A DNA stretch of 64,000 nucleotides from Clostridia bacterium. GTDB taxonomy: Bacteria > Bacillota > Clostridia > RGIG6154. The notes under the pieces are model-generated. The model did not search any database. It was not told where the DNA came from and worked only from the letters and a program-made list of their open reading frames with translations. The stretch spans positions 294 through 64,293 of the forward strand of contig JAZRDC010000100.1 of NCBI GenBank assembly GCA_045660065.1, in the 5' to 3' direction. How positions within the stretch are numbered: the stretch's first letter is position 1; every line of letters begins with the position of its first letter. Position numbers and translations under genes: made by a program. Below, piece by piece: positions 4,620-29,365 of the stretch.

Positions 4620-4633
4620 AAGGATGAATAATA

Positions 4634-4984: not shown

Positions 4985-4994
4985 TTAAATCTAT

Positions 4995-5030
4995 AAAAAT
5001 CCCAAAGTTTTAAACTTTGGGATTTTTTAT
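4995..5030 (+). terminator. rho-independent terminator
   Basis: aaatcccaaagttttaaactttgggatttttt hairpin + U tract. Confidence 0.7.
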
Positions 5031-5139
5031 CTTTTAGTCAATATGTCACATTTTTTTTGACATATATATTGATTTTTTTCAAAAAATGTGGTATTATATT
5101 TTTTATTAAAAACACAATTATGAAAAGGAGTTTTGATTT

Positions 5140-13398: not shown

Positions 13399-14007
13399 AT
13401 GAGTTTTGATGTAAAAGCGTTGTTTAATATTGGTTACGGCCTTTATGTTGTAACATCAAAAGATGGCACTAAAGACAACGGTGCAATAGTAAATACAGTA
13501 ATGCAACTTACCGATAATCCTAACAGACTTGCAGTTTGTGTAAATAAGAAAAATTACACTCACGATATTGTTAAAAACAGTGGCAAACTCAATGTAAATA
13601 TTTTGGACGAATCTGCACCATTTTCTGTTTTTCAGAATTTTGGCTTTAAAAGCGGAAGGGATGCAGATAAGTTTGAAAACATCGATAGTTTTCGTTCAGA
13701 AAATGGGCTTTTAGTTCTTACAGACCACATCAATTCTTTTATTTCTCTGGAAGTTGAAAAATATGTAGATGTTGAAACTCATGGTATGTTTATCTGCAAA
13801 GTAGCAGACGCAAGAACAATGTACGATACACCAACAATGACATATTCATATTATCACAAGAATGTAAAACCAAAACCGAATACCGATGTTAAAAAGGGAT
13901 ACAGATGTAAAATCTGCGGATATGTATATGAGGGTGATCCTCTTCCTGAAGATTTCATATGTCCTCTTTGTAAACACGGTGCACAGGATTTTGAAAAAAT
14001 TAATTGA
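13399..14007 (+). CDS. flavin reductase-like domain protein with C-terminal rubredoxin
   Basis: NIGYGLYVVTSKDG... flavin reductase fold; C-terminal YRCKICGYVYEGDPLPEDFICPLCKHG rubredoxin CxxC...CPxC. Confidence 0.7.
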   Translation: MSFDVKALFNIGYGLYVVTSKDGTKDNGAIVNTVMQLTDNPNRLAVCVNKKNYTHDIVKNSGKLNVNILDESAPFSVFQNFGFKSGRDADKFENIDSFRSENGLLVLTDHINSFISLEVEKYVDVETHGMFICKVADARTMYDTPTMTYSYYHKNVKPKPNTDVKKGYRCKICGYVYEGDPLPEDFICPLCKHGAQDFEKIN

Positions 14008-14090
14008 TTAAAAAACCGAAGCAATTGCTTCGGCTTTTAATATTTTTTTAAAAAAGTGGAATAATAAGCAAATAGAAGAGAGGGTTAACT

Positions 14091-14525
14091 ATGAAAATGA
14101 CAAAAAAGGAATATAAAAAATATGCAGAAAAAAAGGCAGATAAATCACCCCTGTTAAAAGATATGTTAAATGCCTTTTGGATAGGCGGTTTGATTTGTAC
14201 TATTGGACAGTTTTTGACAGAAATGTTTAGTAATCTCGGACTGGATAAAGAAATGGCGGGAACAGCTACCAGTATTACACTTGTATTTATAAGCGCAACT
14301 CTAACAGGTCTTAATGTGTATGATAAAATAGCAAAGGTTGCAGGTGCAGGAACTTTGGTGCCAATAACAGGATTTGCAAACGCAGTTGTTTCACCTGCCA
14401 TAGAATTTAAAAACGAAGGATTTATAATGGGGGTTGCCGCAAATATGTTTAAAATAGCAGGACCTGTAATAACATATGGAATAATTGCGTCAGTTTTTGC
14501 AGGAATAATATATCTTGTTTTTTAG
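14091..14525 (+). CDS. spoVAC: stage V sporulation protein AC
   Basis: 144 aa membrane protein; ...PLLKDMLNAFWIGGLICTIGQ...LVPITGFANAVVSPAIEFKNEGFIMGVAANMFKIAGPVI typical SpoVAC. Confidence 0.85.
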   Translation: MKMTKKEYKKYAEKKADKSPLLKDMLNAFWIGGLICTIGQFLTEMFSNLGLDKEMAGTATSITLVFISATLTGLNVYDKIAKVAGAGTLVPITGFANAVVSPAIEFKNEGFIMGVAANMFKIAGPVITYGIIASVFAGIIYLVF

Positions 14526-14548
14526 AAAATATGTAGCAGATTGCACCA

Positions 14549-14593
14549 GCATAACACCTTAGGTGCCAGTACAATACCATAAGGTGTTATGTG
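14549..14593. repeat. 45-bp imperfect palindrome (att-like site) sharing ACCATAAGGTG-TATG core with the P' arm of the spoVAD intervening element
   Basis: gcataacaccttaggtg-ccagtaca-ataccataaggtgttatgtg; 15/16 identity to 23754-23769. Confidence 0.5.
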
Positions 14594-14727
14594 AAAATAT
14601 TTATTATGACATTATACTTGGGGTGAAAAAATGCAACAACGGTAAACGACAAAACTAATCATTGACAACCTTATTTTATAAATCTAATGCAAGTGGTAGG
14701 ATACATATAAAAAAGGAGTTGCCAATT

Positions 14728-15567
14728 ATGAAAAAAATTACTAATGAACTAATTAATGAATTTAAAGAATATCTTATTAATGAAGAAAAATCAACTGCTA
14801 CAATTGAGAAATATGTCCACGATGTTGTTGCTTTTATGATATGGGCAAGGGATAATGAAGTTACAAAACTGTCAGTTTTGGAATACAAGCAGGAAATGAC
14901 AGAAAAATACGCCCCTGCGAGTGTAAATGCGGCATTATCATCACTTAACAGTTTCTTTATATTCAATGAGTGGTATGATTGTAAGGTTAAAGCGGTAAAA
15001 ATTCAGAAGCAGATTTTTGCTAACACCGATAAAGAACTTACAAAAGCGGAGTATGAAAGATTGCTTATGGCTGCAAAGAATAATAAAAACGAAAGACTTT
15101 ATTACCTTATGCAGACGATTTGTTCAAGCGGAATTCGCGTTTCAGAACTTTCTTCAATCACCGTAGAGGCAGTAAAACTGCGCAAGGCAACAATTAATTG
15201 CAAAGGCAAAATGCGAGTTGTAATTTTACCAAATGACCTGTGTAAAATGTTGTTGGAATACGCAAAAAGGAAGAAAATAACAAGCGGCCCTGTATTCGTT
15301 ACAAGAACAGGGAACCCGCTTGACAGAAGTTCTATATGGAAAATGATGAAGGATTTGTGCGAAGATGCGAGAGTAAATAAAGATAAAGTATTTCCGCACA
15401 ATCTTCGTCACCTGTTTGCAAGAACCTACTACAGCCTGCAGAAGGATATAGTAAGACTTGCGGATATTTTAGGTCATTCCAGCATTAATACAACAAGAAT
15501 TTATACTATGGAATCAGGAGATATCCACCGCAATCAAATTCAGAGATTGGGATTATTGTTGATATAA
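14728..15567 (+). CDS. tyrosine-type site-specific recombinase/integrase (XerC/D-like)
   Basis: R...HNLRHLFARTYY...GHSSINTTRIYT catalytic R-H-R-Y residues; N-terminal SAM-like core-binding domain; RBS AAAGGAG before MKKITNEL. Confidence 0.85.
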   Translation: MKKITNELINEFKEYLINEEKSTATIEKYVHDVVAFMIWARDNEVTKLSVLEYKQEMTEKYAPASVNAALSSLNSFFIFNEWYDCKVKAVKIQKQIFANTDKELTKAEYERLLMAAKNNKNERLYYLMQTICSSGIRVSELSSITVEAVKLRKATINCKGKMRVVILPNDLCKMLLEYAKRKKITSGPVFVTRTGNPLDRSSIWKMMKDLCEDARVNKDKVFPHNLRHLFARTYYSLQKDIVRLADILGHSSINTTRIYTMESGDIHRNQIQRLGLLLI

Positions 15568-15585
15568 AACAATAGTGGGTGCAAG

Positions 15586-16161
15586 TTACAGGTTTTCTGA
15601 ATTATGTTCCGTTGTTAAATGAAATTTTATTGTATTTTGGATATTATTAAGGTGCGATTGCAATTTTTCATTATCCTCCCAGATTGTATAATATACAATT
15701 GCCGAAAAAACAGAATAGATAAATGCTTCAGCTTGCTTATATGTACAACCATAAATTTTAACAAGCTTCTCTGCGTAGTAATATGAATTGCTAAACTCAT
15801 TCATTGCTTCACGCATCCGCTTTCCATACACAGGACTTACAGTGAGTTGTATTAAACACCGAAGATTTGGTTTATATTTATCGATTTCTTGTAAAAGGTT
15901 TTTAGAATAGTCTTCTACAGGTTCGATATGTTTTATGATAAAGTCGAAAAGTTTATCAATAACCTTTGTTAAACCATATTTACCTGCACTTATCCAGATA
16001 TCTTCTTTGTTTTCAAACCAGTAATACAAACTGCTTTGTGCTAACTTTTCCTTTCTGCACAAATCTCCTATAGATGCTTGCAATAACCCGGTTGTCAGAA
16101 GATACTCCCATGTTTTTTCTACGATTGTCATTTTTTTGTCAGGATTATTTTTGTAATTCAT
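15586..16161 (-). CDS. TetR/AcrR-family transcriptional regulator
   Basis: N-terminal HTH ...ASIGDLCRKEKLAQSSLYYWFENKEDIW typical TetR_N. Confidence 0.75.
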   Translation of the reverse strand: MNYKNNPDKKMTIVEKTWEYLLTTGLLQASIGDLCRKEKLAQSSLYYWFENKEDIWISAGKYGLTKVIDKLFDFIIKHIEPVEDYSKNLLQEIDKYKPNLRCLIQLTVSPVYGKRMREAMNEFSNSYYYAEKLVKIYGCTYKQAEAFIYSVFSAIVYYTIWEDNEKLQSHLNNIQNTIKFHLTTEHNSENL

Positions 16162-16240
16162 TTTTACACCCCTTCAGATATAATTTACTAAATTGTATAA
16201 CCTGATGTAATGTTCATTACAATAGGTAAAAAAATAAATT

Positions 16241-16520
16241 CACATAATCGAAATTATGTTGAAAAAATTCTGTCCTATATTCAAATGCCTCATAAGTATA
16301 CCACTTTCAACAGTTTTTGTCAATGATTTTTTATATGTATTTTAGTAAAAAAACACCGTATCACAGAAAAACAGTACATAAACCAGACCGGTATAAGTAA
16401 AATATACTCTTTACCGGTCTAATAATCATATTCTTATGCAAAATTTTAAAGTTAATATTCCATTCTGGAAATTTTGAGGTTAAATTTTTAAAAAATCTTC
16501 AACATAATTTCGATTATGTG
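16241..16520. repeat. pair of perfect 23-bp inverted repeats (each an internal 7-4-7 palindrome ACATAAT-N4-ATTATGT) flanking ~235 bp; candidate dual operators or MITE-like unit
   Basis: 16241-16263 cacataatcgaaattatgttgaa; 16498-16520 ttcaacataatttcgattatgtg (exact reverse complement). Confidence 0.6.
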
Positions 16521-16648
16521 GAATTTTATTTTTTTTGACGTAGTGTGTAATGAAAGTTACACATCACCATATATTGTGTAATTATTTTCCGGAAAAGACG
16601 TATAATTACACTTTTTGTCATATCTTTTTGACAGCCAAATTGGTGCAG

Positions 16649-16663
16649 ACAGTTTAAAACTGT
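16649..16663. promoter_or_regulatory. palindromic operator ACAGTTTAAAACTGT followed by TTTACATATATTGTCAT (-10-like), upstream of camelysin paralog 1
   Basis: motif GGTGCAGACAGTTTAAAACTGTTTACATAT repeated at 19943 and 21529. Confidence 0.55.
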
Positions 16664-16708
16664 TTACATATATTGTCATTACTTTATTATCAAAAGGAGG
16701 AATTTTAA

Positions 16709-18490
16709 ATGAAAAAAATGTATTCAACAAAGAGATCGTTGATTACAAGCGTAATTGCTCTTATGCTCTGTTTCTCAATGCTCTTAGGCACAACATTTGC
16801 GTGGTTCACAGATTCAGTAACAAGCGCAAATAACATTATCAAGTCTGGTAACTTAGATGTTGCAATGTACTGGGCAGACGGTAAAGCTGATCCAGATACA
16901 ACATCATGGACAGATGCATCAACAGGTGAAATTTTCAACTACGACAAATGGGAACCAGGTTATGCTGAAGTTCGTCATATCAAAATTGCAAACGAAGGCA
17001 CACTTGCACTTAAATATAAAGTGTTAATCGCTGCAACAGGTGTTGTTACTGATCTTGCAGATGTAATTGATGTTTACTACGCAGATCCTGCAGTTCAGGT
17101 TGCAGATCGTTCTCAGCTTACTGATGCAAATAAACTTGGTACTCTTACAGAAGTGCTTTCAAAACTTGGTGAAACAGGTTATGGTGAACTTGCAGCAGAT
17201 GAAGCGCACACAATTACTCTTGCATTTAAAATGCAGGAATCAGCAGGCAACGAATATATGAACAAATCAATCGGTTCAAAATTTGCTGTTAAAATCGTAG
17301 CAACACAGTTAGAAGCTGAAATGGACAGTTTTGATGCAACATATGATGCAGAAGCTGAGTATCCTAATGTAAATAGTGTAAACGTTCCTGCAAACGCAAC
17401 AACTTCTTCAACACTTAAAATGGACGAAGTTAAAGTTACAATTCCAACTACAGCAGGTGAAGGTGCTTACGAACTACAGGTAGTTAAAACAGGTGTTGAA
17501 ACAGATGAAAATGAAAAAACAACAGTTTCATACGACATTAATGTCCTTAAAGATGGTGTAAAGGTATCAGGCATTGAAATTCCTGTAGAAATCAATGTTG
17601 GCAAATATCTTGAAATCATATCACTTAAGCACAACGGAAATGATATAGCAAAAGCAGATTATAACTATGATAAAAAAACAGGTATTATTAAGTTCACAAC
17701 AACTTCATTCAGCCCATTTGCAGTTGAATATGTACCTGGAAAAATAACAAGCGGTCTTTATGATGAAGATCCTACTCAGTATGACAAAACATTGTTAGAA
17801 CCAAATTCAGAATACATTTCAACTGAAATTAAAGTAGGCGGAGTATCAAAATGGAACGTTAGTGAACGTGCTACAACTGTTTTTGTAGAACCTTCACAGT
17901 CTGGAAAACTTTATAGTATAATCAGTGGTTTACAGAACAATGAACATTCAACAGTTTACCTCTATCCTGGTACATATAATGAAGGTACAACAATCAATGT
18001 TACATCATCAATGGATATCATAGGTCTTGGTGATAAAGATAGCGTTAAAGTTGTTAAAACATCATCATCAAGTAGCAACCGCCATCTTTTCAATGTAAGT
18101 GGCACAAAAGCAGATTATATCGAAGTAACACTTAGAAATATGTATTTAGATGCTACAGCAACCACAACAAATAATAAAGATAATGCAGCAGTTCAGTCTA
18201 TCAGAAAATCTAAAGTAAAATGCTATGACCTTACAATTGTTAAAGGTACAGGCTGGGATGCAGTTGCTTTTTATGTAAATGGAAATAATGCAGTTGATGG
18301 TGTGAAATATCCTGCATATCTTTATGTTGAAAACTGTGCACTTAATACAACCAAAACATTTGGTGTAGTTACAACAAGTGGAAGTTACAAATTCTACCAC
18401 AACAATCTTACATATAATGGAACAGCTTATACAAACAATAGCGGTTCAATTTTAAACCAGTCAATGTCAGCAGACGATTGGGAATGGTAA
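16709..18490 (+). CDS. TasA/camelysin-like (SipW-cognate signal peptide) N-domain protein with C-terminal right-handed beta-helix-like extension, paralog 1
   Basis: MKKMYSTKRSLITSVIALMLCFSMLLGTTFAWFTDSVTSANNIIKSGNLDV aligns with TasA/CalY GGTWAAFND..SGTLDL; C-terminus Gly/Asn/Thr-rich beta-helix repeats. Confidence 0.7.
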   Translation: MKKMYSTKRSLITSVIALMLCFSMLLGTTFAWFTDSVTSANNIIKSGNLDVAMYWADGKADPDTTSWTDASTGEIFNYDKWEPGYAEVRHIKIANEGTLALKYKVLIAATGVVTDLADVIDVYYADPAVQVADRSQLTDANKLGTLTEVLSKLGETGYGELAADEAHTITLAFKMQESAGNEYMNKSIGSKFAVKIVATQLEAEMDSFDATYDAEAEYPNVNSVNVPANATTSSTLKMDEVKVTIPTTAGEGAYELQVVKTGVETDENEKTTVSYDINVLKDGVKVSGIEIPVEINVGKYLEIISLKHNGNDIAKADYNYDKKTGIIKFTTTSFSPFAVEYVPGKITSGLYDEDPTQYDKTLLEPNSEYISTEIKVGGVSKWNVSERATTVFVEPSQSGKLYSIISGLQNNEHSTVYLYPGTYNEGTTINVTSSMDIIGLGDKDSVKVVKTSSSSSNRHLFNVSGTKADYIEVTLRNMYLDATATTTNNKDNAAVQSIRKSKVKCYDLTIVKGTGWDAVAFYVNGNNAVDGVKYPAYLYVENCALNTTKTFGVVTTSGSYKFYHNNLTYNGTAYTNNSGSILNQSMSADDWEW

Positions 18491-18538
18491 TTCGGTAAAT
18501 CCCAATTTATTTAAATAACAAATAAGGAGTAGATAATA

Positions 18539-19852
18539 ATGACAAAATCTTATTCAACAAAAAGATCGTTGATCACAAGCGTAATTGCTCTTATGCTTTG
18601 CTTTTCAATGCTCTTAGGCACAACATTTGCGTGGTTCACAGATTCAGTAACAAGCGCAAATAACATCATTAAATCAGGTAACCTTGATATTGAACTCAGA
18701 TATAAAAACGATGAAGTTGCCGATTGGACTGAAGTTAAGGACGATACCAATGTTTTCAAAAAAGAAACACTTTGGGAACCTGGTCATGTTGAAGTTGTAA
18801 AACTCAAAATCACAAACGCAGGTACACTTGCACTTAAATATCAGCTCGGTGTAAATGTGGTAAACGAAGTAACATCTATTAATGTTAACAATGGTACACT
18901 TCAACTTTCAGAACATATTAAATATGGTATTTTAGAAGGCGATTTAAATCTTTCACGCAGTGAGGCAATTGCGGCAGTAGAAGCAACTGCAAAAGCGTTA
19001 AAAGAACCATACACTTCAGAAGATATCGACCTTCTTCCAAAAACTGACACAAACTCAGATTTTGAAGACATCGTAACATTGGTAGTTTATATGCCTGAAA
19101 CTGTAGGCAACGAAGCAAACTACAAATTGGGAGAAGCAGTTCCAACAATCGACCTTGGTATTAACCTCTTTGCAACACAGTACGCTTCAGAAGCAGACTC
19201 TTTCGATGAAAAATATGACGAAAAAGCTCTTTATGAAAAAGGCAAACCTGTAGCAAAAACAAAGGAACTTACCAAAACAGCAACATTATCAGTTGAAGAC
19301 GATAATGGTAATACTGTAGAAATTTTAGGCAAAGATTTTGCAATTACTACTAACACTGCTGGAAGTTTCGGAGCAAACCTTGGAGCAATTAATCTTGATG
19401 CAGCATATCAATTTGAGCCAACATTATCTTTAGAAGAAGCATTACGTTCAGAATATGAACAGTGGCACGCAGATTTTATTGTTTCAGTTGATAAAGATAT
19501 TCCTGCAAACAGTATTGCTTTAGCCGGTTACTACAATTTATGGTGTGAAGGGTTCAACAATAATAATTGGGTAGCTCTTACTAATGAGTATGATGCAATT
19601 ATGGCAAATCAGCCAATCCGTCTTGTTGACTATATGGGACAGGGTTCATTGACTGTTGCTCTCAAGGATCTTGCAGAGTATGGCAATGATGGTATCGGAT
19701 TCCTTTGTGGTGTAATGGAATTGAATGATGCTCTTCCTACAAATACAAAATTCACAGTTGAACTTCGTCTTTACGAAGCAACAGACAATTCAAGGGCTTC
19801 AGAAACAGGCGAATATATGACTATAGGAACATATAGTTATCTTTTTAAATAA
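18539..19852 (+). CDS. TasA/camelysin-like N-domain protein, paralog 2 (distinct C-terminal domain)
   Basis: near-identical first 45 aa to paralog 1; co-transcribed (48-bp gap, no terminator). Confidence 0.7.
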   Translation: MTKSYSTKRSLITSVIALMLCFSMLLGTTFAWFTDSVTSANNIIKSGNLDIELRYKNDEVADWTEVKDDTNVFKKETLWEPGHVEVVKLKITNAGTLALKYQLGVNVVNEVTSINVNNGTLQLSEHIKYGILEGDLNLSRSEAIAAVEATAKALKEPYTSEDIDLLPKTDTNSDFEDIVTLVVYMPETVGNEANYKLGEAVPTIDLGINLFATQYASEADSFDEKYDEKALYEKGKPVAKTKELTKTATLSVEDDNGNTVEILGKDFAITTNTAGSFGANLGAINLDAAYQFEPTLSLEEALRSEYEQWHADFIVSVDKDIPANSIALAGYYNLWCEGFNNNNWVALTNEYDAIMANQPIRLVDYMGQGSLTVALKDLAEYGNDGIGFLCGVMELNDALPTNTKFTVELRLYEATDNSRASETGEYMTIGTYSYLFK

Positions 19853-19863
19853 TTTATTATATG

Positions 19864-19924
19864 CCCGTCCTGTCCATTCGGACAGGCGGCAATCAAAAGG
19901 TACGAATTTAATTTGTACCTTTTG
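19864..19924 (+). terminator. conserved two-hairpin module: hairpin1 (CCTGTCC-ATTC-GGACAGG) + GGCGGCAATCAAA + rho-independent terminator
   Basis: repeated with compensatory base changes at 21449-21512. Confidence 0.65.
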
Positions 19925-19942
19925 ACTGCTGAATAGATGCAG

Positions 19943-19957
19943 ACAGTGAAAGACTGT
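19943..19957. promoter_or_regulatory. operator variant ACAGTGAAAGACTGT upstream of paralog 3
   Basis: same flanks GCAGACAGT...ACTGTTTACATATATTTGTCAT. Confidence 0.5.
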
Positions 19958-20003
19958 TTACATATATTTGTCATAAAAAATATTACATTAGGAGGAAAAT
20001 CAA

Positions 20004-21434
20004 ATGACAAAATCTTATTCAACTAAGAGATCATTGATTACAAGCGTAATTGCTCTTATGCTTTGTTTCTCAATGCTTTTAGGCACAACATTTGCGTGGT
20101 TCACAGATTCAGTAACAAGCGCAAATAACATTATCAAGTCTGGTAACTTAGATGTTGCAATGTACTGGGCAGACGGTAAAGTTGATCCAACTACAACATC
20201 ATGGACAGACGCATCAACAGGTGCAATTTTTGACTATGCTAATTGGGAACCAGGTTATGTACAGGTTAGACACATCAAAATTGCAAATGAAGGCTCACTT
20301 GCTCTTAAATACCAGTTAGCAATTGCTGCTAATGGAGAAGTATCTGAACTTGCAAATGTAATCGATGTTTACTATGCAGATCCAGCTGTTAAAGTTGCTA
20401 ATCGTGCTCAGCTTACAGAAGACATGAAACTCGGTACTCTTACTGAAGTTCTTGCTAACCTTGGCGCAACAGGTTATGGTGAACTCCAGAAAGATGAAGC
20501 TCACACAGTTACACTTGCATTCAAGATGCAGGAATCAGCAGGCAACGAATATCAGAACTTAGCAATCGGCTCAGATTTCGCAGTTAAACTTGTTGCAACA
20601 CAGCTCACATCTGAAGAAGACAGCTTTGACGATCAGTATGACAAAGATGCTGAATATGATTATCTCGTTGCAACACAGGACGAACTTGAAGCAGCAATCA
20701 AGAGCGCTCCAGTAGGTGATGAACCAACTGTTATTGCTTTAGGAACTGATATAAAAGAAACTCTTACAATTGCGCAGGAACCTGGTGTTAAATTAGTGAT
20801 CGATGGTAACGGTAATTCAGCTTTGGAAGGTATTATTGTAGATGGTAAATCAGCAGCATATTCGGATGCAGGATTAGTTATTAAGGATTTTGTTTTTGAT
20901 GCCAACAGCAAAATTGATGAAGAAGCTTGCATTAACCTTGGCGATGGCACCAATGGAACTCGTTACATTAGCAACTTAACAGTGGAAAACTGTACTTTTG
21001 ATGTTGCAGGAAAAGTTGCGGTTAAATCTTATCAAAATGGGGACAAAAACATCACAATCAAAGGATGTACTGTATCAGATAAAATGCATTCATTAGTTCA
21101 GGTTAATAACGTAAATAACTTGGTTGTAGAAGATTGTAAAATTTTCTCAAAGAATGGTATCAATGCAAACCAGAGCCCGATTGTTACAGTAAAAGGCTGC
21201 ACAGCTGATGTAACAGGATACGCGGTTCGTTTTGGTGCAACTTCAGGTGCAACTGGTGTAGCAGAAACATATCTCATTGAAAACTGCAACTTGAAATCTG
21301 CATGTGCAGAATCAGACGATGCAGTAGTTGTTCTCCGTGCTACAACTGAAGGAGCAACACTTACTCTCAAAAACACAACTCTCACAGGAACACGTGATAT
21401 TATTAACCTCGGAAACGCAACAATTGTTAGATAA
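20004..21434 (+). CDS. TasA/camelysin-like N-domain protein with C-terminal pectate-lyase-like beta-helix domain, paralog 3
   Basis: conserved N-terminus; C-terminus NCTF/GCTV/DCKI/NCNL repeat pattern typical of parallel beta-helix. Confidence 0.7.
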   Translation: MTKSYSTKRSLITSVIALMLCFSMLLGTTFAWFTDSVTSANNIIKSGNLDVAMYWADGKVDPTTTSWTDASTGAIFDYANWEPGYVQVRHIKIANEGSLALKYQLAIAANGEVSELANVIDVYYADPAVKVANRAQLTEDMKLGTLTEVLANLGATGYGELQKDEAHTVTLAFKMQESAGNEYQNLAIGSDFAVKLVATQLTSEEDSFDDQYDKDAEYDYLVATQDELEAAIKSAPVGDEPTVIALGTDIKETLTIAQEPGVKLVIDGNGNSALEGIIVDGKSAAYSDAGLVIKDFVFDANSKIDEEACINLGDGTNGTRYISNLTVENCTFDVAGKVAVKSYQNGDKNITIKGCTVSDKMHSLVQVNNVNNLVVEDCKIFSKNGINANQSPIVTVKGCTADVTGYAVRFGATSGATGVAETYLIENCNLKSACAESDDAVVVLRATTEGATLTLKNTTLTGTRDIINLGNATIVR

Positions 21435-21448
21435 TAATTTCATACAAG

Positions 21449-21512
21449 CCCGACCTATCCCTTCGGGGATAGGCGGCAATCAAAGGGCACGAATTAGTTT
21501 GTGTCCTTTTAT
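21449..21512 (+). terminator. second copy of two-hairpin/terminator module
   Basis: CCTATCCC-TTC-GGGGATAGG + GGCGGCAATCAAA + GGGCACGAATTAGTTTGTGTCCTTTT. Confidence 0.65.
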
Positions 21513-21528
21513 TGCCGAATAGGTGCAG

Positions 21529-21543
21529 ACAGTTTAAAACTGT
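21529..21543. promoter_or_regulatory. palindromic operator ACAGTTTAAAACTGT upstream of paralog 4
   Basis: identical to 16649-16663 copy. Confidence 0.55.
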
Positions 21544-21587
21544 TTACATATTTGTCATTATAATATTACATAAGGAGGAAAAACGAA

Positions 21588-22994
21588 ATGACAAAAGTTT
21601 ATTCAACTAAGAGATCATTAATTACAAGCGTAATCGCTCTTATGCTTTGTTTTTCAATGCTTCTCGGCACAACATTTGCGTGGTTCACAGATTCAGTAAC
21701 AAGCGCAAATAACATTATCAAGTCTGGTAACTTAGATGTTGAAATGTACTGGGCAGACGGTACAGCAGCAGTTCCAACTGTAGACGCAGGTTGGACAGAC
21801 GCATCATCAGGTCCAATCTTCAAGAATGATTTATGGGAACCAGGTTATGTAGAAGTTCGTCACATTAAAATTGCAAACGAAGGCACACTTGCTCTTAAAT
21901 ATCAGTTGGCAATTGCTGCTAACGGAGAAGTATCTAAGCTTGCTGATGTAATCGATGTTTACTATGTAGATCCTGCTACTCAGGTTGCAGATCGTACTCA
22001 GCTTCCAGCTGACAAGAAACTCGGTACTCTTACTCAAGTTCTCGCAAATCTTGCTACAACAGCTAGCGGTAACCTCGAAGCAGGTAATGCTCACACTGTT
22101 ACTCTTGCTCTTAAAATGCAGGAATCAGCAGGCAACGAATATCAGGATTTAGCAATCGGTACTGATTTCTCTGTTAAACTCTTTGCAACACAGTTAGATG
22201 CTGAAGAAGATTCATTCGGTAAAGATTATGACGCAGATTTAGACGCTTCACAAAATGGTATAGCACGCGTTACTTCTAATGGTTCAACAGTAATGTATTA
22301 TAGCGAAGAAAGTGGTTATGCAGGCAAAGTAAGATTAACTGCACTTCCTGAAAATCTTGGTAGCGAATATGTTGTACCTGCAGAAGTTAACGATTTAGGT
22401 GGTGTACTCGCAGGTAAAACTCTTGACAAATTGACCATTCATGCAAATGTTCAGAATGCATATAAATCTCTTCAGGGTACAACCGTTGATACTGTTGTTG
22501 TTGAAAGTGGCATGACAACAATTCCTGATCGTATGTTCTACCGCGCAACTGTTGATAGTGTAGTTATTCCATCAACAGTTAAAAATGTTGTAGATAGCGC
22601 TTTCCAGGAATCCATTATCAAAGAAATTAAAGTTCCTGCTTCTGTTGAATATTTCGGGGTACAGGCATTTGGTTCTTCTAAAATTGAAACTGTTACTTTT
22701 GAAGGTAACACAAGAATTCAGAACAAAGCTTTCCGTGGTTGTGCTAATCTCAGAACAGTTTACATAAACGGTGATGATATTACTTTTGAAAACACAACTG
22801 GTCAGGCTAACTGCTGGTTCTGTAACAGCGAATCAAACAATCCTGGTACAAGTGATATTACATTTTATGTTAAAAATGAAACTGTAGCAGCAAAAGTTAA
22901 AGCGGCTATGGGTGCTGAAGTTCAAAGTGAAGCAACAAGCAAAGTTAAGATTTATGTAAATAACGTACCATACTTTGTTGGTACAAAACTGTAA
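21588..22994 (+). CDS. TasA/camelysin-like N-domain protein with C-terminal BspA-type leucine-rich-repeat domain, paralog 4
   Basis: conserved N-terminus; C-terminus ...VVIPSTVKNVVDSAFQES.IKEIKVPASVEYFGVQAFGSSKIETVTFEGNTRIQNKAFRGCANLRTVYI LRR_5-like repeats. Confidence 0.7.
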   Translation: MTKVYSTKRSLITSVIALMLCFSMLLGTTFAWFTDSVTSANNIIKSGNLDVEMYWADGTAAVPTVDAGWTDASSGPIFKNDLWEPGYVEVRHIKIANEGTLALKYQLAIAANGEVSKLADVIDVYYVDPATQVADRTQLPADKKLGTLTQVLANLATTASGNLEAGNAHTVTLALKMQESAGNEYQDLAIGTDFSVKLFATQLDAEEDSFGKDYDADLDASQNGIARVTSNGSTVMYYSEESGYAGKVRLTALPENLGSEYVVPAEVNDLGGVLAGKTLDKLTIHANVQNAYKSLQGTTVDTVVVESGMTTIPDRMFYRATVDSVVIPSTVKNVVDSAFQESIIKEIKVPASVEYFGVQAFGSSKIETVTFEGNTRIQNKAFRGCANLRTVYINGDDITFENTTGQANCWFCNSESNNPGTSDITFYVKNETVAAKVKAAMGAEVQSEATSKVKIYVNNVPYFVGTKL

Positions 22995-23115
22995 ATAATA
23001 CATTATAAACCAAACAAAAAACATCAATGAATTTTCATTGATGTTTTTTTTGTTTGGAATAAAATTTTTCATTCTGGAAATCAAATAAGTATACAAATTT
23101 TTTTAAGGAGTATAT

Positions 23116-23760
23116 ATGAACAGAATAGGAAAGCAGACGGTAGTTTTAAATAATTTGCCAAGAATTATAGAAACTGCTTCGGTAGTTGGACAAAAAGAGA
23201 ACGAGGGTAATCTCGCAGGGTGCTTTGATTATGTTATAAGTGACGGAAGATTTGGTGAAAAATCATGGGAAAAGGCAGAAAGCAAAATGCAGAAAAAAGC
23301 CGTTGAAATTCTCTTGAAAAAATCGGGGAAAACAAAAGAAGAAATAGATTTTATAGCAGGCGGCGACCTTTTAAATCAATGTATGGGTACAAGTTTTGGT
23401 TTGGCGGATTTTAATATCCCGTTTTTAGGTCTTTACGGTGCGTGTTCCACAATGGCAGAAAGCCTTTGCATTGCATCAATGACAGTAGATGGTGCATATT
23501 CAAAAAATACCATCGCAGTAACCTCCAGTCATTTTTGCTCAAGTGAAAGGCAGTTCCGTTTTCCCTTGGAATATGGTGGTCAGCGCACACCCACATCACA
23601 GTGGACGGTAACAGGTTCAGGAGCCGCTTTAGTGTCAGACAAAGGCTCAGATATCGCCATAACACACATAACTCCTGGCAAAATTGTAGATATGGGAATA
23701 ACTGACGCCAACAATATGGGTGCAGCAATGGCCCCTGTAAGTGTTAAACTAACACCATAA
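23116..23760 (+). CDS. spoVAD: stage V sporulation protein AD, N-terminal ~205 codons (gene split after ...MAP at 23736; frame then runs 8 codons into the element to a TAA)
   Basis: GKQTVVLNN...FLGLYGACSTMAESL...SSHFCSSERQFRFPLEYGGQRTPTSQWTVTGSGAA...DMGITDANNMGAAMAP collinear with SpoVAD residues 1-~205. Confidence 0.85.
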   Translation: MNRIGKQTVVLNNLPRIIETASVVGQKENEGNLAGCFDYVISDGRFGEKSWEKAESKMQKKAVEILLKKSGKTKEEIDFIAGGDLLNQCMGTSFGLADFNIPFLGLYGACSTMAESLCIASMTVDGAYSKNTIAVTSSHFCSSERQFRFPLEYGGQRTPTSQWTVTGSGAALVSDKGSDIAITHITPGKIVDMGITDANNMGAAMAPVSVKLTP

Positions 23761-24003
23761 GGTGATATGCTAAATCTCTACAATTTACGCAAATTTCCTA
23801 CTTTTTCCCGAAGGATGAGACACCCCAATTCGCTATTTTTTGACAAAAGGAGAGATGATTAGAAAATACATATAAAATAATGGTACAACCATTTTGAAAA
23901 TTTTTTTGAGTTTGTGGTTTCTTGGACTAAAATAGGTATAATGCAATCAGAAAGTGTAAATAACAATTATTGGAAATCTTGGTTGACGGGAAAGGAAAAT
24001 CCT

Positions 24004-24210
24004 ATGGTGAATATAGTTAAAGCCGAAGAAATTGCAGATTTAAAAATTCTTACAATTGACCAAACAAAATCGCAACCTGAACGCTTAACGCAATTTTTTA
24101 AGGATGTGAAAAATCCATATATGGTAAGAGTAGGCGATACATTGGTACGAATAGAATTTATCGGTGGAAGAAATTTTTCAGATGCTTTAACTGTGGCTTT
24201 TTCTGTGTAA
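24004..24210 (+). CDS. small hypothetical protein upstream of recombinase (candidate accessory/directionality factor)
   Basis: 68 aa MVNIVKAEEIADLKIL...; position immediately 5' of recombinase inside element; function not recognisable. Confidence 0.35.
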   Translation: MVNIVKAEEIADLKILTIDQTKSQPERLTQFFKDVKNPYMVRVGDTLVRIEFIGGRNFSDALTVAFSV

Positions 24211-24318
24211 AGAGAGATTTCAAAATATTTCTACTTGAAAATGCGATGGTGGTATGATATAATCCTTTTGTAGAGATTAGCATATCACTGTCTATAAAAT
24301 AAGACGGAGGTACGCATA

Positions 24319-26001
24319 ATGACAAATACTAAATATGCTATGTATGTAGAGCAGCCTCCGGTATTCAAGGTAATATGGAAAGCTGCTCTTTATATTAGGC
24401 TCTCAAAAGACGATGGGGATAAGTGTGAAAGTAATTCGGTAACTTCTCAACGCGAGATATTGATGGAATATCTGAAACAACACCCTGACATCGAGTTGTA
24501 TGATATTTATGTTGATGACGGATGGTCAGGCACAAACTTCAACAGACCTGATTTTTCCCGAATGATGGAAGATGTTTATGCAGGTAATGTAAACACTATT
24601 ATTGTAAAAGATTTGTCCAGATTTGGAAGAAATTATACAGATAGCGGATACTACCTTGAAAATGTGTTTGTAAGACTGAATGTGAGATTTATTGCACTTA
24701 ACAACGGCGTTGATACTGCATCTAATAATATGAACGCCGCAACTCAATGTATTTCGGTGGGGGTTACAAATGTTATCAACGAAAGTGTAGCCGCTACAAC
24801 TTCTGTCAATGTTCGGGCAACACTTAATGTAAACCGCACCCAGGGCAAATTTATTGGTTCTTTTCCCACTTACGGATATTTGAAAGACCCAAACGACCAC
24901 CATAAACTTATTGTTGACGAGGAAACTGCTCCTGTTGTACGCTCAATTTTTGAGCGGTTTATTTCAGGGAAAAGTATAATTGGCATTGCAAAGGAACTTA
25001 ATGAAGAAGGAATTCCTAATCCTTCAATGTATAAAAAACTTAAAGGCTTTAATTACAGACACCCGGTAGGGAAAAGTAATGACGGCTTATGGCCTGACAG
25101 TTCTGTAAGAAGAATTCTTCAAAATCAGATGTATATTGGCAATATGGTACAGGGCAAGAATACCACGATAAGTTACAAAATCAAACAATGCAGAGCCATT
25201 CCAAAGGAAGATTGGATTATCGTTGAGAATACTCACGAGGCTATTGTGAGTAAAGAGATGTTTGAAAAAGCACAATCCTTGTTTAACAAAAGCATTCGCA
25301 CTGCACCGCAGAAAAAAGAAGTTGATTTGTTTTCAGGATTTGTAAAATGTGCAGATTGCCACAGATTGATGCATAAGAAAACAAATGTTCACTCTTATGG
25401 TACCTATCATTATTACCGTTGTTCTACTGCACGAAAAATGAAAAAAAGTGCCTGTGGTAATCATACTATAAGAATTGATAAACTTGAAGAGACGGTTATT
25501 ACAGTCATTCAAAATATGATAGATGTGGCAATTGATATGAATGTTTTGATTGAAAAGATAAATTCAAGCAGTATGCGCAAGAAAGAATCAACGCATCTTA
25601 TGAAAAATCTGCAGACTTTAATTTCCGAAAGAGAAAAATGTATGAGCCTGATGACAGGCTTATATCCCGACTACAAAAACGGGATTATAAGTCAGGCGGA
25701 ATATCAGAGGTTAAAGCAAAACTTAAACGAAAAAATTGATATTCTTGATAAAAATATCAACAATTTAAGCGAAACTGCAAAAAACTATGAAGACGGCGTA
25801 AATAACGAAAACAAGTTTATTACCAACTTTAAAAAGTACGGAAAATTAGAGTGTCTTAACAGAAATATCCTGACAGAACTTGTTGAAGAGATTTTAGTGC
25901 ATGAAAACAAAATGATTACCATCAAATTCAAATTTGAAGATGCTTATAAAGATGCAATGCACTATATAAAAATGAATAAGGACGTAATAAAGACCGCATA
26001 A
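24319..26001 (+). CDS. large serine recombinase (resolvase N-domain + recombinase domain + zinc ribbon/coiled coil), SpoIVCA/CisA-like
   Basis: ALYIRLSKDDGD...NSVTSQREIL catalytic N-domain; ...CADCHRLMHKK...YYYRCSTARKMKKSACGNH zinc ribbon; 560 aa; RBS GGAGGT. Confidence 0.85.
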   Translation: MTNTKYAMYVEQPPVFKVIWKAALYIRLSKDDGDKCESNSVTSQREILMEYLKQHPDIELYDIYVDDGWSGTNFNRPDFSRMMEDVYAGNVNTIIVKDLSRFGRNYTDSGYYLENVFVRLNVRFIALNNGVDTASNNMNAATQCISVGVTNVINESVAATTSVNVRATLNVNRTQGKFIGSFPTYGYLKDPNDHHKLIVDEETAPVVRSIFERFISGKSIIGIAKELNEEGIPNPSMYKKLKGFNYRHPVGKSNDGLWPDSSVRRILQNQMYIGNMVQGKNTTISYKIKQCRAIPKEDWIIVENTHEAIVSKEMFEKAQSLFNKSIRTAPQKKEVDLFSGFVKCADCHRLMHKKTNVHSYGTYHYYRCSTARKMKKSACGNHTIRIDKLEETVITVIQNMIDVAIDMNVLIEKINSSSMRKKESTHLMKNLQTLISEREKCMSLMTGLYPDYKNGIISQAEYQRLKQNLNEKIDILDKNINNLSETAKNYEDGVNNENKFITNFKKYGKLECLNRNILTELVEEILVHENKMITIKFKFEDAYKDAMHYIKMNKDVIKTA

Positions 26002-26458
26002 TTTTTAGTAGTGCAAAAAATATAAAAATGTTTGTTTGAGCATTGATTTTTTGTTAAATATGTGATAAAATTAATACATTCACACAAAGTGTTGGTTATG
26101 TCACAACTGCTTTTAGCAAGGCATAATCGGTGGAAAGGGAATGGGGTGAGAATCCCCTGCGATAACTGTCGGTGTATGCACCAAATGTTTTTATATCCGT
26201 TATCGAAAGATAGTCATTGGGAAACTGAGAAGGCAGGATATAAAAATGCAGACTTTTTGTCTATATGGTGTAAGCCACAAGACCTGCTTTGATGTTATCT
26301 CGTAGGTGCGTCTATGCATAGAGGTAGCTTTTTTGTCTGCAAAAATTAATGCATACAAATTGTGAACCATCACAGGAAAACTCAGCTGTGGTAATTTTTC
26401 AAAACGAAAAATTGCCGCAGTTTTTTGTTTTATGCGGCAAAAAGAGAGGATGGTAAAA

Positions 26459-28672
26459 ATGAAAACAAAAAAATTATTATCAATCATTTTATGTATGGTG
26501 ATTGTATTGGGGGCATCATTATTTCCTGTGAGTGCAGATAGTAACACAATTGTGCACAACATCGCAGAAAAGTATTCAGGAGAAAGTCTTGTAGATGATC
26601 CTAATATGATGTGGTTTGTTGCAGATCTTTCTGTGTATGAACAGGTTTATCAGCAAAATTCAATCACACCGGTTATCAGGCAAAATTGCCTTGATAAAAT
26701 AATTGCAGAGGCAGATAGTTCAGTGTATCCGTCTGCAATGGCAAAATCAATTATAGCATTAAGAGCGTTGGGATATGATGCTAAAAATGTTATTACTGCT
26801 GATTTGACAGCAATTGACGTTGTGAAAAAACTTACAGATATGGTCGATAGCGGTGAGGCAAGTGTTCTTAATGAATACACTTTGCCATATGTAATTTTAG
26901 CGTTGCAACAAGGCAATAATTACGCAACTGTTGAACAGATGGACTATCTGATTGCAAAGGCAGTTGAAACAAAATCTGCATGGCAGGACACCACCTGGGG
27001 AACAGATGCCGCAACACCTATGCTTTTAGCATTAGCACCTTATTACAACACCAATATACAGGTGAAAAATGCTATTGATGAAACTTTACCTATTATAACT
27101 TCATTTCAAGATGAAGCAGGACTTATCAGTAACGCTGCATCTCACGGACTTGCTATGGCGGCATTTTCTGCACTTGGAATAGATAATCATAGCATAATAA
27201 AAAATGGCAATGATATGTTTGACGGACTGATGACAGAGATAACACCTGAAAATGACGGATTTGAACCAAGTTATAATTCTTTTTCAACAGAGCAGGGATT
27301 CAGAGGACTTTTATCAACAATGTTGCCTGCAGGTACAAGAATTTATGATTTTGCAGATAATCCGTATAATCAGGCAACAGCAACATGGGCTGAATTTGCA
27401 CCTGTAACATTTGAGGTTACACCGCAGGACGCAATTGTAACAATAACAGATGCTACACCGGTTAAAAACAACAAATTTGATTTAAATGCAGGAACTTATA
27501 ATTATTCTGTTGTGCATTCTGTATATCAGCCTGTAAGCGGTGTTATTGTTATTACTCCTGAAGAAGCAGAAAATCATATTCCTAAAACAGTTAATGTTGT
27601 TTTGCAACAATACCCGCAATCTTCAGGTGGTGTGAGTAGCGATATTAAAGTGAAGGTTAAAGTTATGTCACACAATCAAAATGAATGCAATAATTCATTT
27701 ACTTATAAAAATAATTCTAATGCGTACCAATCATTGGTAAGTGAAACTGTTACTTTGAAAAAAGGGGACAGCGTTTTAGATGCGTTAAAAAAAGCACTTA
27801 ATAAGAATAATATTGTATACTCTGAAAACAACGGATATGTGTCAGCAATAAATAATCAGAAAGAATTTGACCACGGAAGTAATTCAGGTTGGATGTTCAC
27901 TGTTGACGGACAGCATTCCACAAAAGGAAGCTTAGAAACCAAATTGTCAAACGGTCAGGAAGTTGTTTGGTTTTATACAGATGACTATACTGCAGAAAGA
28001 GGATCGGAAAGCATAAGACCATCTTCTTCAGGTACATCTAAGAAGGAAAAAGCCTGGGGTCTTGAAGGAAAAAATCCTGATATCAAAAAAAGAGATGTAG
28101 AGATTAAAGGCAAAACATTTGGTGATATTAAAAATCATAAAAATAAGACCGCCATTGAGTCTTTGGCTGAAAGAAAAATTATTAATGGCAAAAGTGAAAC
28201 ACTTTTTGAGCCTGACGGGCTTATGACAAGAAGTGAATTTGCAACAATTATTGTAAATGGATTGTGTCTGCCTGTTAAAGACGGAAAAGAATTTAAAGAT
28301 GTTTTAAAAACCGATTGGTTTTTTGATTATATTGAAACCGCCTATGCCTATGGTATTGTAAAAGGGGAGTCTGACACAGAGTTTAACCCAAACGGAACAA
28401 TCACAAGAGAAGAAGCGGTTGTTATGCTCGCAAGAGCGGCAAAATTGTGCGGAATGGATACTTCGGTAAGTTCTGATGGTGTTCGCAATGTTTTGGCACA
28501 ATTTACTGATTACAAAACTGTATCTGACTGGGCGCAATGTTCACTTGCATTTTGTTACGGCAAAAAAATATTATCAAACGAAGTGTTGGAAATTAAACCG
28601 TCAGAGTGTGTTACAAGAGCGGAAATAGCGGAAATACTTTATAATATGCTTTGTCTTGCTAAACTTATATAA
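26459..28672 (+). CDS. secreted cell-surface protein: alpha/alpha-toroid N-region + DUF4430 domain + three C-terminal SLH domains (transcobalamin-like architecture)
   Basis: signal peptide MKTKKLLSIILCMVIVLGASLFPVSA; DUF4430-like ...DSVLDALKKALNKNNIVYSENNGYVSAIN...GSNSGWMFTVDGQ...; three repeats FxD(V/I)..DWF..Y...A...GIVKG SLH motifs. Confidence 0.65.
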   Translation: MKTKKLLSIILCMVIVLGASLFPVSADSNTIVHNIAEKYSGESLVDDPNMMWFVADLSVYEQVYQQNSITPVIRQNCLDKIIAEADSSVYPSAMAKSIIALRALGYDAKNVITADLTAIDVVKKLTDMVDSGEASVLNEYTLPYVILALQQGNNYATVEQMDYLIAKAVETKSAWQDTTWGTDAATPMLLALAPYYNTNIQVKNAIDETLPIITSFQDEAGLISNAASHGLAMAAFSALGIDNHSIIKNGNDMFDGLMTEITPENDGFEPSYNSFSTEQGFRGLLSTMLPAGTRIYDFADNPYNQATATWAEFAPVTFEVTPQDAIVTITDATPVKNNKFDLNAGTYNYSVVHSVYQPVSGVIVITPEEAENHIPKTVNVVLQQYPQSSGGVSSDIKVKVKVMSHNQNECNNSFTYKNNSNAYQSLVSETVTLKKGDSVLDALKKALNKNNIVYSENNGYVSAINNQKEFDHGSNSGWMFTVDGQHSTKGSLETKLSNGQEVVWFYTDDYTAERGSESIRPSSSGTSKKEKAWGLEGKNPDIKKRDVEIKGKTFGDIKNHKNKTAIESLAERKIINGKSETLFEPDGLMTRSEFATIIVNGLCLPVKDGKEFKDVLKTDWFFDYIETAYAYGIVKGESDTEFNPNGTITREEAVVMLARAAKLCGMDTSVSSDGVRNVLAQFTDYKTVSDWAQCSLAFCYGKKILSNEVLEIKPSECVTRAEIAEILYNMLCLAKLI

Positions 28673-28682
28673 GGGTAATTGA

Positions 28683-29339
28683 ATGAAAAAATATAAAAAT
28701 AAAATAATTTCACGTGCCATCATTTTCATCATATCTGTTGTTGCTTTTTTAAGTGGTTGCGGTGAGAACACTATATCTGAAAATGCAGTATCTTACAACG
28801 CACCTAAAGAAACTAAAGTGCAAATAAAAGAGGAAAAAACATCAGAAGTAAATTCTTCAGAAATAAATCAAGATGTAAAACCGACAGAAGTTAAAAAAGA
28901 AAGCACAGAAAAACATGAAAAAGCAACAGTTGATAATTCTGAAGCAACTACTGAATCAAATGGAGAATTTACTTGCATTTTATCTGTAAGATGTGATACA
29001 ATTTTAAATAATATGTCGCGCTTTGATAGTGCTAAAGTGGATATTGTGCCAGGGGACGGTGTAATATTTGCACCAGAATCTGTTGTGTTTTATGAAGGCG
29101 AAAGTGTATTCAATGTGCTTGCTCGTGAAATGAAGCGTAACAAAATACATTTAGAGTTTGAAATGACACCACTTTACGAAACTGCGTATATAAAAGGGAT
29201 TGCCAATATTTATGAATTTGATTGCGGAGAACTTTCGGGGTGGTTATACAAGGTAAACAACGAAAGTCCGGGTGTTGGATGCTCTCTTTATAAGTTGAAA
29301 GATGGCGATGTAGTTGAATGGATATACACTTGCGGTTAA
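28683..29339 (+). CDS. DUF4430-domain lipoprotein
   Basis: lipobox LSGCG; C-terminal ...VFNVLAREMKRNKIHLEF...ELSGWLYKVNNESPGVGCSLYKLKDGDVVEW DUF4430 pattern. Confidence 0.6.
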   Translation: MKKYKNKIISRAIIFIISVVAFLSGCGENTISENAVSYNAPKETKVQIKEEKTSEVNSSEINQDVKPTEVKKESTEKHEKATVDNSEATTESNGEFTCILSVRCDTILNNMSRFDSAKVDIVPGDGVIFAPESVVFYEGESVFNVLAREMKRNKIHLEFEMTPLYETAYIKGIANIYEFDCGELSGWLYKVNNESPGVGCSLYKLKDGDVVEWIYTCG

Positions 29340-29365
29340 AACTATGTAGTACTTAGGAGAAAAAG

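Follow-up and report, generated by a model that had tools for sequence, protein, structure and literature searches.

The stretch of Clostridia bacterium DNA analyzed here (contig JAZRDC010000100.1 of assembly GCA_045660065.1, positions 294 to 64,293; 64,000 nucleotides, hereafter the window) carries a spoVA operon in which 8.6 kb separates spoVAC (14091–14525, + strand; PF03862, E = 1.8e-45) from the 5′ fragment of spoVAD (23116–23760, +; 214 amino acids, PF07451 profile positions 1–207 of 329). Window genes were called from Pfam and NCBIfam scans. The block that begins after spoVAC, the last gene ahead of the insertion, opens with an open reading frame (ORF) for a tyrosine recombinase (14662–15567, +; PF00589 and PF02899), followed by a TetR/AcrR-family gene on the opposite strand (15586–16161, −; named from homologs with PF00440) and by four co-directional TasA-like genes, Tas1 (16709–18490, +), Tas2 (18539–19852, +), Tas3 (20004–21434, +), and Tas4 (21588–22994, +). 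The end of the Tas array is marked by a bidirectional intrinsic terminator at 23016–23049 (−23.7 kcal/mol, z = −6.9, with a T run after it). An earlier annotation made from the letters alone, which we call the sequence-only reading, had listed this gene content, and both the genes and their coordinates proved to be right. The GC content of the block shows no contrast with its flanks, and the Pfam and NCBIfam scans found no excisionase, replication, or transfer genes in it.

Between the TetR gene and Tas1 is a gap of 548 bp that contains the longest inverted repeat of the region, with 36-nucleotide (nt) arms at 16228–16263 and 16498–16533 that are 89% complementary and lie 234 nt apart. Each arm holds a core site (16241–16260 on the left, 16501–16520 on the right) with the sequence CACATAATCGAAATTATGTT (ACATAAT-CGAA-ATTATGT), in which two 7–8-bp palindromic half-sites surround an asymmetric 4-nt center; this is the layout of a tyrosine-recombinase crossover site. 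The core motif occurs exactly twice in the 64 kb, in opposite orientation, compared with 0.02 copies expected. The two window cores are identical to each other and share the same single mismatch to the family consensus, which fits homogenization by recombination. A search allowing up to three mismatches returned only these two cores, with no further sites at the ends of the block or among the Tas genes. A shufflon among the Tas paralogs was ruled out, given the lack of extra core sites and the common direction of all four genes. The 234-bp segment between the arms (16264–16497) contains a near-consensus promoter, TTGACA-N17-TGnTATACT (16295–16323, −), predicted from its match to the consensus at 11 of 12 hexamer positions and its extended TG. 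We refer to the segment and its paired sites as an inverton.

Translation of the recombinase most likely begins with the ATG at 14728, which lies 203 bp after spoVAC and would give a protein of 279 amino acids, as in its homologs. Alignment to XerA (5hxy, E = 4e-25) showed that the catalytic R, HxxRH, and Y motifs are intact. The protein missed the XerC/XerD equivalog cut-offs by a wide gap (TIGR02225, 130.8 versus 329.6 bits; TIGR02224, 116 versus 335) and gave weak NCBIfam matches to two models for DNA invertases of the tyrosine type, NF007370 and NF007371. It has at least 7,998 homologs at E ≤ 1e-30, and those that were examined adjoin the same inverted sites; no close relatives were found in viral and phage collections. 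The sequence-only reading had taken this gene for an integrase marking the end of an island. Because the predicted recombinase sites flank an internal 234-bp promoter segment and the module recurs in unrelated contexts, we conclude instead that the protein is probably the invertase of the adjacent promoter inverton and not an island-end integrase.

Homologous loci were drawn from nine metagenome loci with recombinase relatives (61–76% identity) and from further loci found by protein look-ups; they are identified below by L numbers where they need to be told apart. The module of recombinase, inverton, TetR gene, and surface cargo was present at at least 15 loci elsewhere, in many unrelated chromosomal contexts. 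Wherever sequence was available the layout was canonical, with the recombinase, a gap of 10–35 bp, the site ACATAAT-N4-ATTATGT, an interior of 206–275 bp, and the inverted site, and it usually continued with a TetR-family gene and then surface-related cargo. Paired sites 206–275 bp apart, directly after the recombinase, were found in L081–L086, L091–L093, and L101–L106. One promoter of the form TTGACA-N17-TGnTATAMT occurred in every segment, 27–40 bp from the arm that it faces (12 loci); it pointed toward the TetR gene in the window, L091, L092/L093, and L101–L103 and toward the recombinase in L082–L087 and L104–L106.

Several of these loci bear on inversion itself. When whole interiors were compared by BLAST, those of L083 and L084 matched L081, L091, L092, and the window as the reverse complement only, and their flanks were collinear. 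L103, a metagenome contig 100% identical to L101, starts with the reverse-complemented TetR-side flank, runs through a core site, and continues with the far end of the interior; because such a junction exists only after inversion, this contig represents the flipped state. Contigs were also seen to break at the core site, with L090 ending inside it and L103 and L106 beginning at it or just outside. In L090 this site lies ~20 bp after the recombinase stop codon, as in the canonical order. L092 and L093, which have an identical recombinase, showed no difference in inverton orientation. We infer that the segment inverts in the window organism as well. In L081, there are three tandem core copies on one side of the interior and two on the other (2046–2131 and 2375–2426), spaced 33–35 bp apart, and these might supply alternative inversion endpoints.

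The window TetR-type protein has no Pfam match at E ≤ 0.01 and a weak NCBIfam match to a FadR-type TetR model (E = 1.4e-6); its assignment comes from homologs with 61–64% identity that carry PF00440 or TetR/AcrR names. A palindrome, TGTAATGNNCATTACA, sits between the TetR-side arm and the TetR start in the window, L081, L083, L084, L091, L092, L101, and L104, that is, in all eight loci with a close TetR homolog. It was missing at that position from three loci without a TetR gene and from L086, where the TetR homolog is only 30% identical. In the window, both arms are flanked: the 16-bp candidate TetR operator TGTAATGTTCATTACA occupies 16206–16221, between the inverton and the TetR start codon, and a second copy, TGTAATGAAAGTTACA, lies on the Tas side of the inverton (16546–16561), where it is taken in by an imperfect extension of the inverted repeat to ~65 nt. 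We suggest that the palindrome is the operator of the regulator, to which the TetR-family protein would bind.

The canonical order, all in one direction, is recombinase, inverton, operator, TetR gene, and cargo. In the window and L107, the TetR gene and inverton are reversed, and the window inverton comes to lie between the TetR gene and Tas1; the TetR gene is tail to tail with the recombinase gene, with stop codons 18 bp apart in the window and the same junction in L107. Recombinase action at a third site was considered as the origin of the reversed TetR-inverton unit and rejected, with only a half-site, ATTATGT, found near the recombinase/TetR junction (15600–15606).

All four Tas proteins (437–593 amino acids) share an invariant 50-residue N terminus, carry a SipW-type signal peptide (TIGR04088, 20.3–22.5 bits; cut-off 19), and match PF12389 with 30.4–35.6 bits (cut-off 22.5), although only over profile positions 3 to ~110 of 196. 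Beyond this region, Tas1 (PF12389, 34.6 bits) has a 350-amino-acid C-terminal extension, Tas3 a right-handed beta-helix domain (PF13229), and Tas4 a BspA-type leucine-rich-repeat domain (PF13306, LRR_5); Tas2 (35.6 bits) is the most divergent of the four paralogs. The AlphaFold model of the Tas3 N-domain had a predicted local distance difference test score (pLDDT) of 62, with 70–86 in the core. The top Foldseek matches of the Tas N-domain in the PDB were the archaeal bundling pili 7ueg (E = 4.5e-6) and the TasA fiber 8aur (E = 1.2e-4), at template modeling (TM) scores of 0.30–0.38; a phmmer comparison with PDB sequences gave no match. The Tas proteins lack an LPXTG motif, and no adjacent sipW or tapA was found. 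We consider that they are probably fiber or adhesin subunits.

The closest TetR homolog is in L104, where the recombinase, inverton, TetR gene, four Tas-like paralogs, and a sortase-like gene stand at a site unrelated to spoVA. This locus is 40–63% identical to that of the window and includes full-length matches to Tas2 (53%) and Tas4 (43%, the LRR_5 gene). Because L104 has a matching module at a non-spoVA site, the window gene set appears to be a recurring functional unit. Elsewhere the cargo differs: L084 and L091 carry S-layer homology (SLH) proteins, L086 an exopolysaccharide (EPS) operon, L085 dockerin and M14 peptidase proteins, L082 an SPFH protein, and L101 giant proteins whose N-domain is Tas-like.

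The Tas intergenic regions have features of their own. A conserved 58-nt leader, which belongs to direct repeat family D6, precedes Tas1 (16614–16671, +), Tas3 (19908–19965), and Tas4 (21494–21551) and contains the palindrome ACAGT-N5-ACTGT and the sequence TTTACA-N16-TATTAT. A double hairpin between Tas2 and Tas3 (19869–19931, +; −37.3 kcal/mol, z = −8.5) has a homologous counterpart between Tas3 and Tas4 (21454–21517; −40.4 kcal/mol, z = −7.4), and where the copies differ, compensatory changes preserve both stems. The hairpins had no Rfam match, and an Rfam scan of 13900–23300, considered for riboswitches in the Tas leaders, returned nothing below E = 0.8. Leaders and hairpins could be terminators, processing sites, or independent promoters. 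L090 has an additional Tas-like PF12389 gene (3306–5053), located between its PqqD-like and DUF1836 genes, that the window lacks (9645/9690). This gene has a perfect TTGACA-N17-TATAAT promoter and is ~71% identical in nucleotide sequence to Tas1, Tas3, and Tas4 in its N-terminal part.

The block itself is an insertion into a junction that is normally contiguous, because spoVAC abuts spoVAD in L094–L100 and in nearly all of the more distant genomes with spoVAC upstream. The distant set came from a scan with the SpoVAD N-fragment, taking one genome per species, which gave 80 loci at 56–68% identity; spoVAC abutted spoVAD in nearly all loci that showed spoVAC upstream, and none had recombinase or Tas genes between the two. 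Closer SpoVAD relatives, found by protein search, were 86–95% identical. Two groups of these, L094–L096 and L097–L100, have the DUF1836, AMP-ligase, SNF symporter, flavin reductase, and spoVAC genes in common with the window at 75–80% nucleotide identity. In them the spoVAD ATG is 9–10 bp past the spoVAC stop codon, which overlaps the spoVAD ribosome-binding site (TAAGGAG); spoVAD in these relatives is coupled to spoVAC in translation. The sequence-only reading had proposed an insertion between these normally adjacent genes, and the comparison with related genomes bore this out and placed the endpoints at ~14524 and 23105.

Aligned with the empty sites of L094 and L097, the left junction in the window reads ...CTTGTTTTTTA/G... 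and the right junction ...CAAATTTTTTTA/AGGAGTATATATG, where the slash marks the point of insertion. The insert of ~8.58 kb lies between two copies of a 7-bp sequence, TTTTTTA (14517–14523 on the left, 23099–23105 on the right), a T-rich duplication that is too low in information to indicate a mechanism. These 7 bp are the only repeat of the att kind at the block ends, where attachment core repeats had been suspected. A longer direct repeat, described by the sequence-only reading as matching at 13 of 14 positions, is real as an exact 12-mer, CATTCTGGAAAT, at 16461–16472 and 23070–23081, with the second coordinate originally placed ~3 nt off; the proposal that it delimits a paralog cassette does not hold. 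Such a match is at chance level (~8% by a Markov null for a 12-mer from the last 66 nt) and one copy is within the invertible segment, so that the repeat delimits nothing. That copy falls in a non-conserved part of the segment, and the spoVAD-proximal copy already differs in L108.

The insertion is old and not strain-specific, being common to L090 and L107 and decayed in L108 and L109. In L090, the recombinase, 84% identical, directly follows spoVAC, and the flanks are ~80% identical in nucleotide sequence. L107, an independent contig that is 94% identical at the nucleotide level, has a recombinase 94–95% conserved with that of the window. L108 and L109, from two samples, have the closest SpoVAD N-fragments (95% amino acid identity) and contain a 277-bp scar between spoVAC and spoVAD (L108:3366–3642, L109:558–834). 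The scar consists of three recombinase pseudo-fragments, encoding MKIMTDELIRKF, DKELTKVEYERLLVAAKN, and IVRLAD, joined to the last 77 bp of the block; the fusion point, at a TGAT microhomology, is followed by the terminator's second half and the 77 bp 5′ of spoVAD. Because L090 and L107 share parts of the block and L108/L109 hold the scar, the block was present in the common ancestor of the window, L090, L107, and L108/L109 lineages and was later mostly deleted in one of them. The L094 and L097 lineages never had it.

Downstream of the Tas array and its terminator, spoVAD and spoVAE (33210–33563) are cut off from spoVAC and most likely have their own promoter, which would be located in the conserved 77 bp at 23039–23115 (+), a candidate promoter and ribosome-binding site delimited by comparison with L108 and L109. 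Nucleotide identity between the window and L108 is 94.9% in these 77 bp (the same value holds for L109), 89.1% in the spoVAD coding sequence and 73% at its third codon positions, 86.6% in the spoVAC coding sequence, and 80% upstream of spoVAC. Because the 77 bp are more conserved than synonymous sites, they support a separate spoVAD promoter, as the sequence-only reading had anticipated from the strong terminator. Inspection by eye with Bacillus consensus sequences found no convincing sigma-G, -F, -E, or -K match in this region; there are a weak sigma-70-like TTGATG-N16-TAAAAT and a partial sigma-E-like pattern. At the other end of the block, a hairpin 3′ of spoVAC (14549–14592, +; −20.5 kcal/mol, z = −4.0) has no clear U tract. 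Upstream of spoVAC, at 14008–14090 and in the L090, L094, and L097 homologs, a conserved terminator hairpin is followed by TTTTAATATTTT...AAAAA.TG.AATAATAA, a stretch that resembles a TG-extended −10 element and lies ~25 nt before the spoVAC start codon. The motif TGGAATAA, seen upstream of spoVAC, also occurs upstream of spoVAD at 23055–23062.

Taken together, these observations make it likely that the block is a lineage-specific insertion holding a phase-variation locus, in which a recombinase flips a promoter, and that it is not a self-mobilizing island. In the mechanism that we propose, the block (~14524–23105) would have landed exactly on the spoVAC stop codon and the spoVAD ribosome-binding site. 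The recombinase (14728–15567) would act on the inverted cores at 16241–16260 and 16501–16520 and flip the 234-bp segment with its one strong sigma-70-type promoter. In the assembled state, the promoter would read leftward across the 16-bp operator and transcribe the TetR gene, continuing in antisense into the recombinase gene; in the flipped state, it would read rightward across the second operator, then the conserved leader, and reach Tas1 and the rest of the four-gene array, and the Tas genes would depend on it. A cell would then alternate between regulator on with fiber genes off and fiber genes on, with spoVAD and spoVAE transcribed from the 77 bp at 23039–23115. A two-way toggle is a reasonable model for the window arrangement.

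Some of the evidence pulls the other way. Only a single orientation was assembled in the window. The canonical TetR gene is co-directional with its cargo, whereas the window has the switch placed between them; because a canonical TetR protein would be co-expressed with the cargo and the window arrangement differs, the regulator could be a repressor of its own cargo, an autoregulator, or a cross-regulator. The leaders of Tas1, Tas3, and Tas4 carry promoter-like hexamers, and these three genes may be transcribed independently of the switch. As for the nature of the cargo, the Tas N-domain was modeled with only middling quality (pLDDT 62, TM score 0.3), and a crude six-frame search for SGSMEP-like motifs gave no convincing SipW-type peptidase in the window.

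An integrative genomic island, with the left-end recombinase as the integrase that inserted between spoVAC and spoVAD and with excision still possible, would account for the precise empty sites in close relatives, the place of the recombinase as the first gene of the block, the TTTTTTA duplication on both flanks, and the presence of other DNA in the same gap in L021 and L070. We nevertheless find it quite improbable: the sole two matches to the recombinase site in 64 kb are internal and inverted, with none at the ends, the recombinase family adjoins inverted site pairs in many unrelated contexts with varied cargo and is without close relatives in phage collections, and the block lacks excisionase, replication, and transfer genes and has a GC content like that of its flanks. 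It is also common to lineages at ~80% nucleotide identity and decayed in situ in L108/L109, with no clean excision.

In an unlikely variant of our model, the block is an insertion and the switch is real but controls only the TetR regulator, and the Tas genes are read from promoters of their own in the leaders while the phase-variable TetR protein acts in trans as their repressor or activator, possibly at other loci too. The inverton is directly upstream of the TetR gene, with the palindrome in the TetR leader, in every canonical TetR locus; the 58-nt leaders contain a different palindrome along with TTTACA-N16-TATTAT, and strong hairpins separate the Tas genes, all of which this variant would explain. 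The −10-like hexamer of the leaders, however, is only 4–5 nt before the Shine-Dalgarno sequence and would leave hardly any 5′ untranslated region (UTR), and the TetR-type palindrome is not found in the Tas3 and Tas4 leaders. The second operator, placed exactly at the Tas-side exit of the inverton, suggests transcription leaving there, and in L104 the TetR gene and the Tas-like genes after it all run the same way, closely spaced like the genes of an operon. That the inverted repeat is a fossil, with recombinase and sites inactive in this lineage and the locus fixed in the TetR-on state, is very improbable given two identical cores whose shared mismatch fits homogenization, arms that are 89% complementary over 36 nt, and a recombinase whose ORF and catalytic residues are intact and which is 94–95% conserved in L107. 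What speaks for a fossil is the one assembled orientation, the departure of both cores from the family consensus at the same position, a recombinase promoter spacer that is apparently 9 nt longer than in L090, and the loss of the locus in the sister lineage L108/L109.

Other events were observed at spoVA. The spoVAD gene is split after residue 214 by a ~9-kb element of the large-serine-recombinase type (~23761–32804), beyond which the 3′ fragment lies at 32805–33206; the element includes the serine recombinase (24319–26001) and a DUF6870 gene (23914–24210). SpoVAD N-fragments of 213–219 amino acids occur in many relatives (59–95% identity), and the element in L094 has different cargo, so the interior of spoVAD looks like a widely used attachment site. 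In Bacillus, spoVAD is expressed in the forespore, and to our knowledge the sporulation-gene intervening elements known so far sit in mother-cell genes; a limited literature search found no paper joining spoVAD with an intervening element. The cargo of the window element (26432–32676) comprises an SLH/DUF4430 protein, a DUF4430 protein, a 295-amino-acid protein, and an ABC-ECF fusion, and the same cargo recurs in another organism (L092:207–6893), where a Fic gene and then a recombinase-inverton-TetR module follow closely downstream. In L108, an IS3-type transposase pair (HTH_21/rve; 1607–2826) is directly 5′ of spoVAC, a position that the flavin reductase gene occupies in the window. The distant relatives L021 (7433–10001) and L070 (8773–10001) have other genes in the spoVAC-spoVAD gap, a 391-amino-acid opposite-strand ORF with a weak N-terminal methylation motif and a PanE/ApbA ketopantoate reductase. 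The suggestion in the sequence-only reading that spoVA is an insertion hotspot thus stands in part, with the spoVAD split at the same residue in many lineages, the L021/L070 gap genes, and the L108 insertion sequence (IS) element adding to it.

Automated labels such as integrase or XerD, together with an empty site, would suggest a mobile island at this locus, where we read the recombinase as a promoter-switch invertase. The ACATAAT-N4-ATTATGT core, the TTGACA-N17-TGnTATAMT promoter, the TetR gene, and the operator TGTAATGNNCATTACA provide a searchable definition of a widespread inverton family of Clostridia that would control loci for EPS, SLH proteins, and TasA-like fibers in uncultured members from the gut, in which phase variation is poorly charted compared with Bacteroides. 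The locus would also show in nature how a promoter can be captured or created once an insertion has taken place, in that spoVAC-AD-AE, normally translationally coupled, has long been split and yet is apparently maintained, because the 77-bp region upstream of spoVAD is conserved. A broader idea, speculative and in our view doubtful, is that the window belongs to a very large family of portable cassettes for phase variation, not yet described, in gut Clostridia, and that TetR and its almost invariant operator couple the loci so that the locus that is ON represses the others; the window would be a version whose promoter toggles between repressor and fiber genes, with an operator at both exits. 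This would allow one-at-a-time display of S-layer, EPS, and TasA-fiber variants, like UpxZ in Bacteroides. Switching could also be boosted in the forespore, because the recombinase gene is directly behind spoVAC without a U-tract terminator, and spores would then germinate with a re-randomized surface phase.

Intergenic invertons near an invertase and cell-surface genes have been described in gut microbiomes by surveys of the PhaseFinder type, including groups dominated by Firmicutes_A (Clostridia-like) genomes (PMC11892184). Neither TetR nor sporulation is mentioned in that study (PMC11892184) or in the DeepInverton paper, and our limited literature search found no description of the site motif, of the TetR-plus-operator component, or of an inverton inside a sporulation operon. 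Among the better-known systems, E. coli fimS with FimB/FimE is alike in having a short (~0.3-kb) promoter segment between inverted repeats, a neighboring tyrosine recombinase, and fiber or adhesin genes that are turned on and off. The window recombinase differs in being a single, Xer-like, two-domain protein of 279 amino acids, whereas Fim-type recombinases are short; the window cores measure 18–20 bp, with palindromic arms and a 4-nt asymmetric center, and lie in 36–65-nt imperfect repeats, in contrast to the 9-bp repeats of fimS. The window module also has a TetR gene with a conserved operator, and its cargo is of the TasA superfamily in a Gram-positive spore former.

RecV of the clostridial spore former C. 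difficile is a tyrosine recombinase that inverts short intergenic segments upstream of surface-protein and regulator operons (cwpV, flgB, and cmrRST). The likeness is functional, with differences: RecV is encoded away from its several targets, and some of its switches work via the 5′ UTR and not a promoter, whereas invertons of the window type each have their own adjacent recombinase and a clear promoter. The Tas proteins resemble B. subtilis TasA and Bacillus camelysin (Peptidase_M73) in their TIGR04088 and PF12389 matches, and their best fold matches, at low TM scores, are the archaeal bundling pili 7ueg and the TasA fiber 8aur; they differ from TasA and camelysin in matching only the first half of the profile, in their large extra C-terminal domains, and in forming four tandem paralogs. 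The capsule invertons of Bacteroides (UpxY/UpxZ) likewise have a promoter inverton before a surface-structure operon with a regulator as the first gene, although there the invertase is the global serine enzyme Mpi, the regulators are the NusG-like UpxY and UpxZ, and the phylum is different. That the operator hardly varies from locus to locus may point to regulation between loci of the kind exerted by UpxZ.

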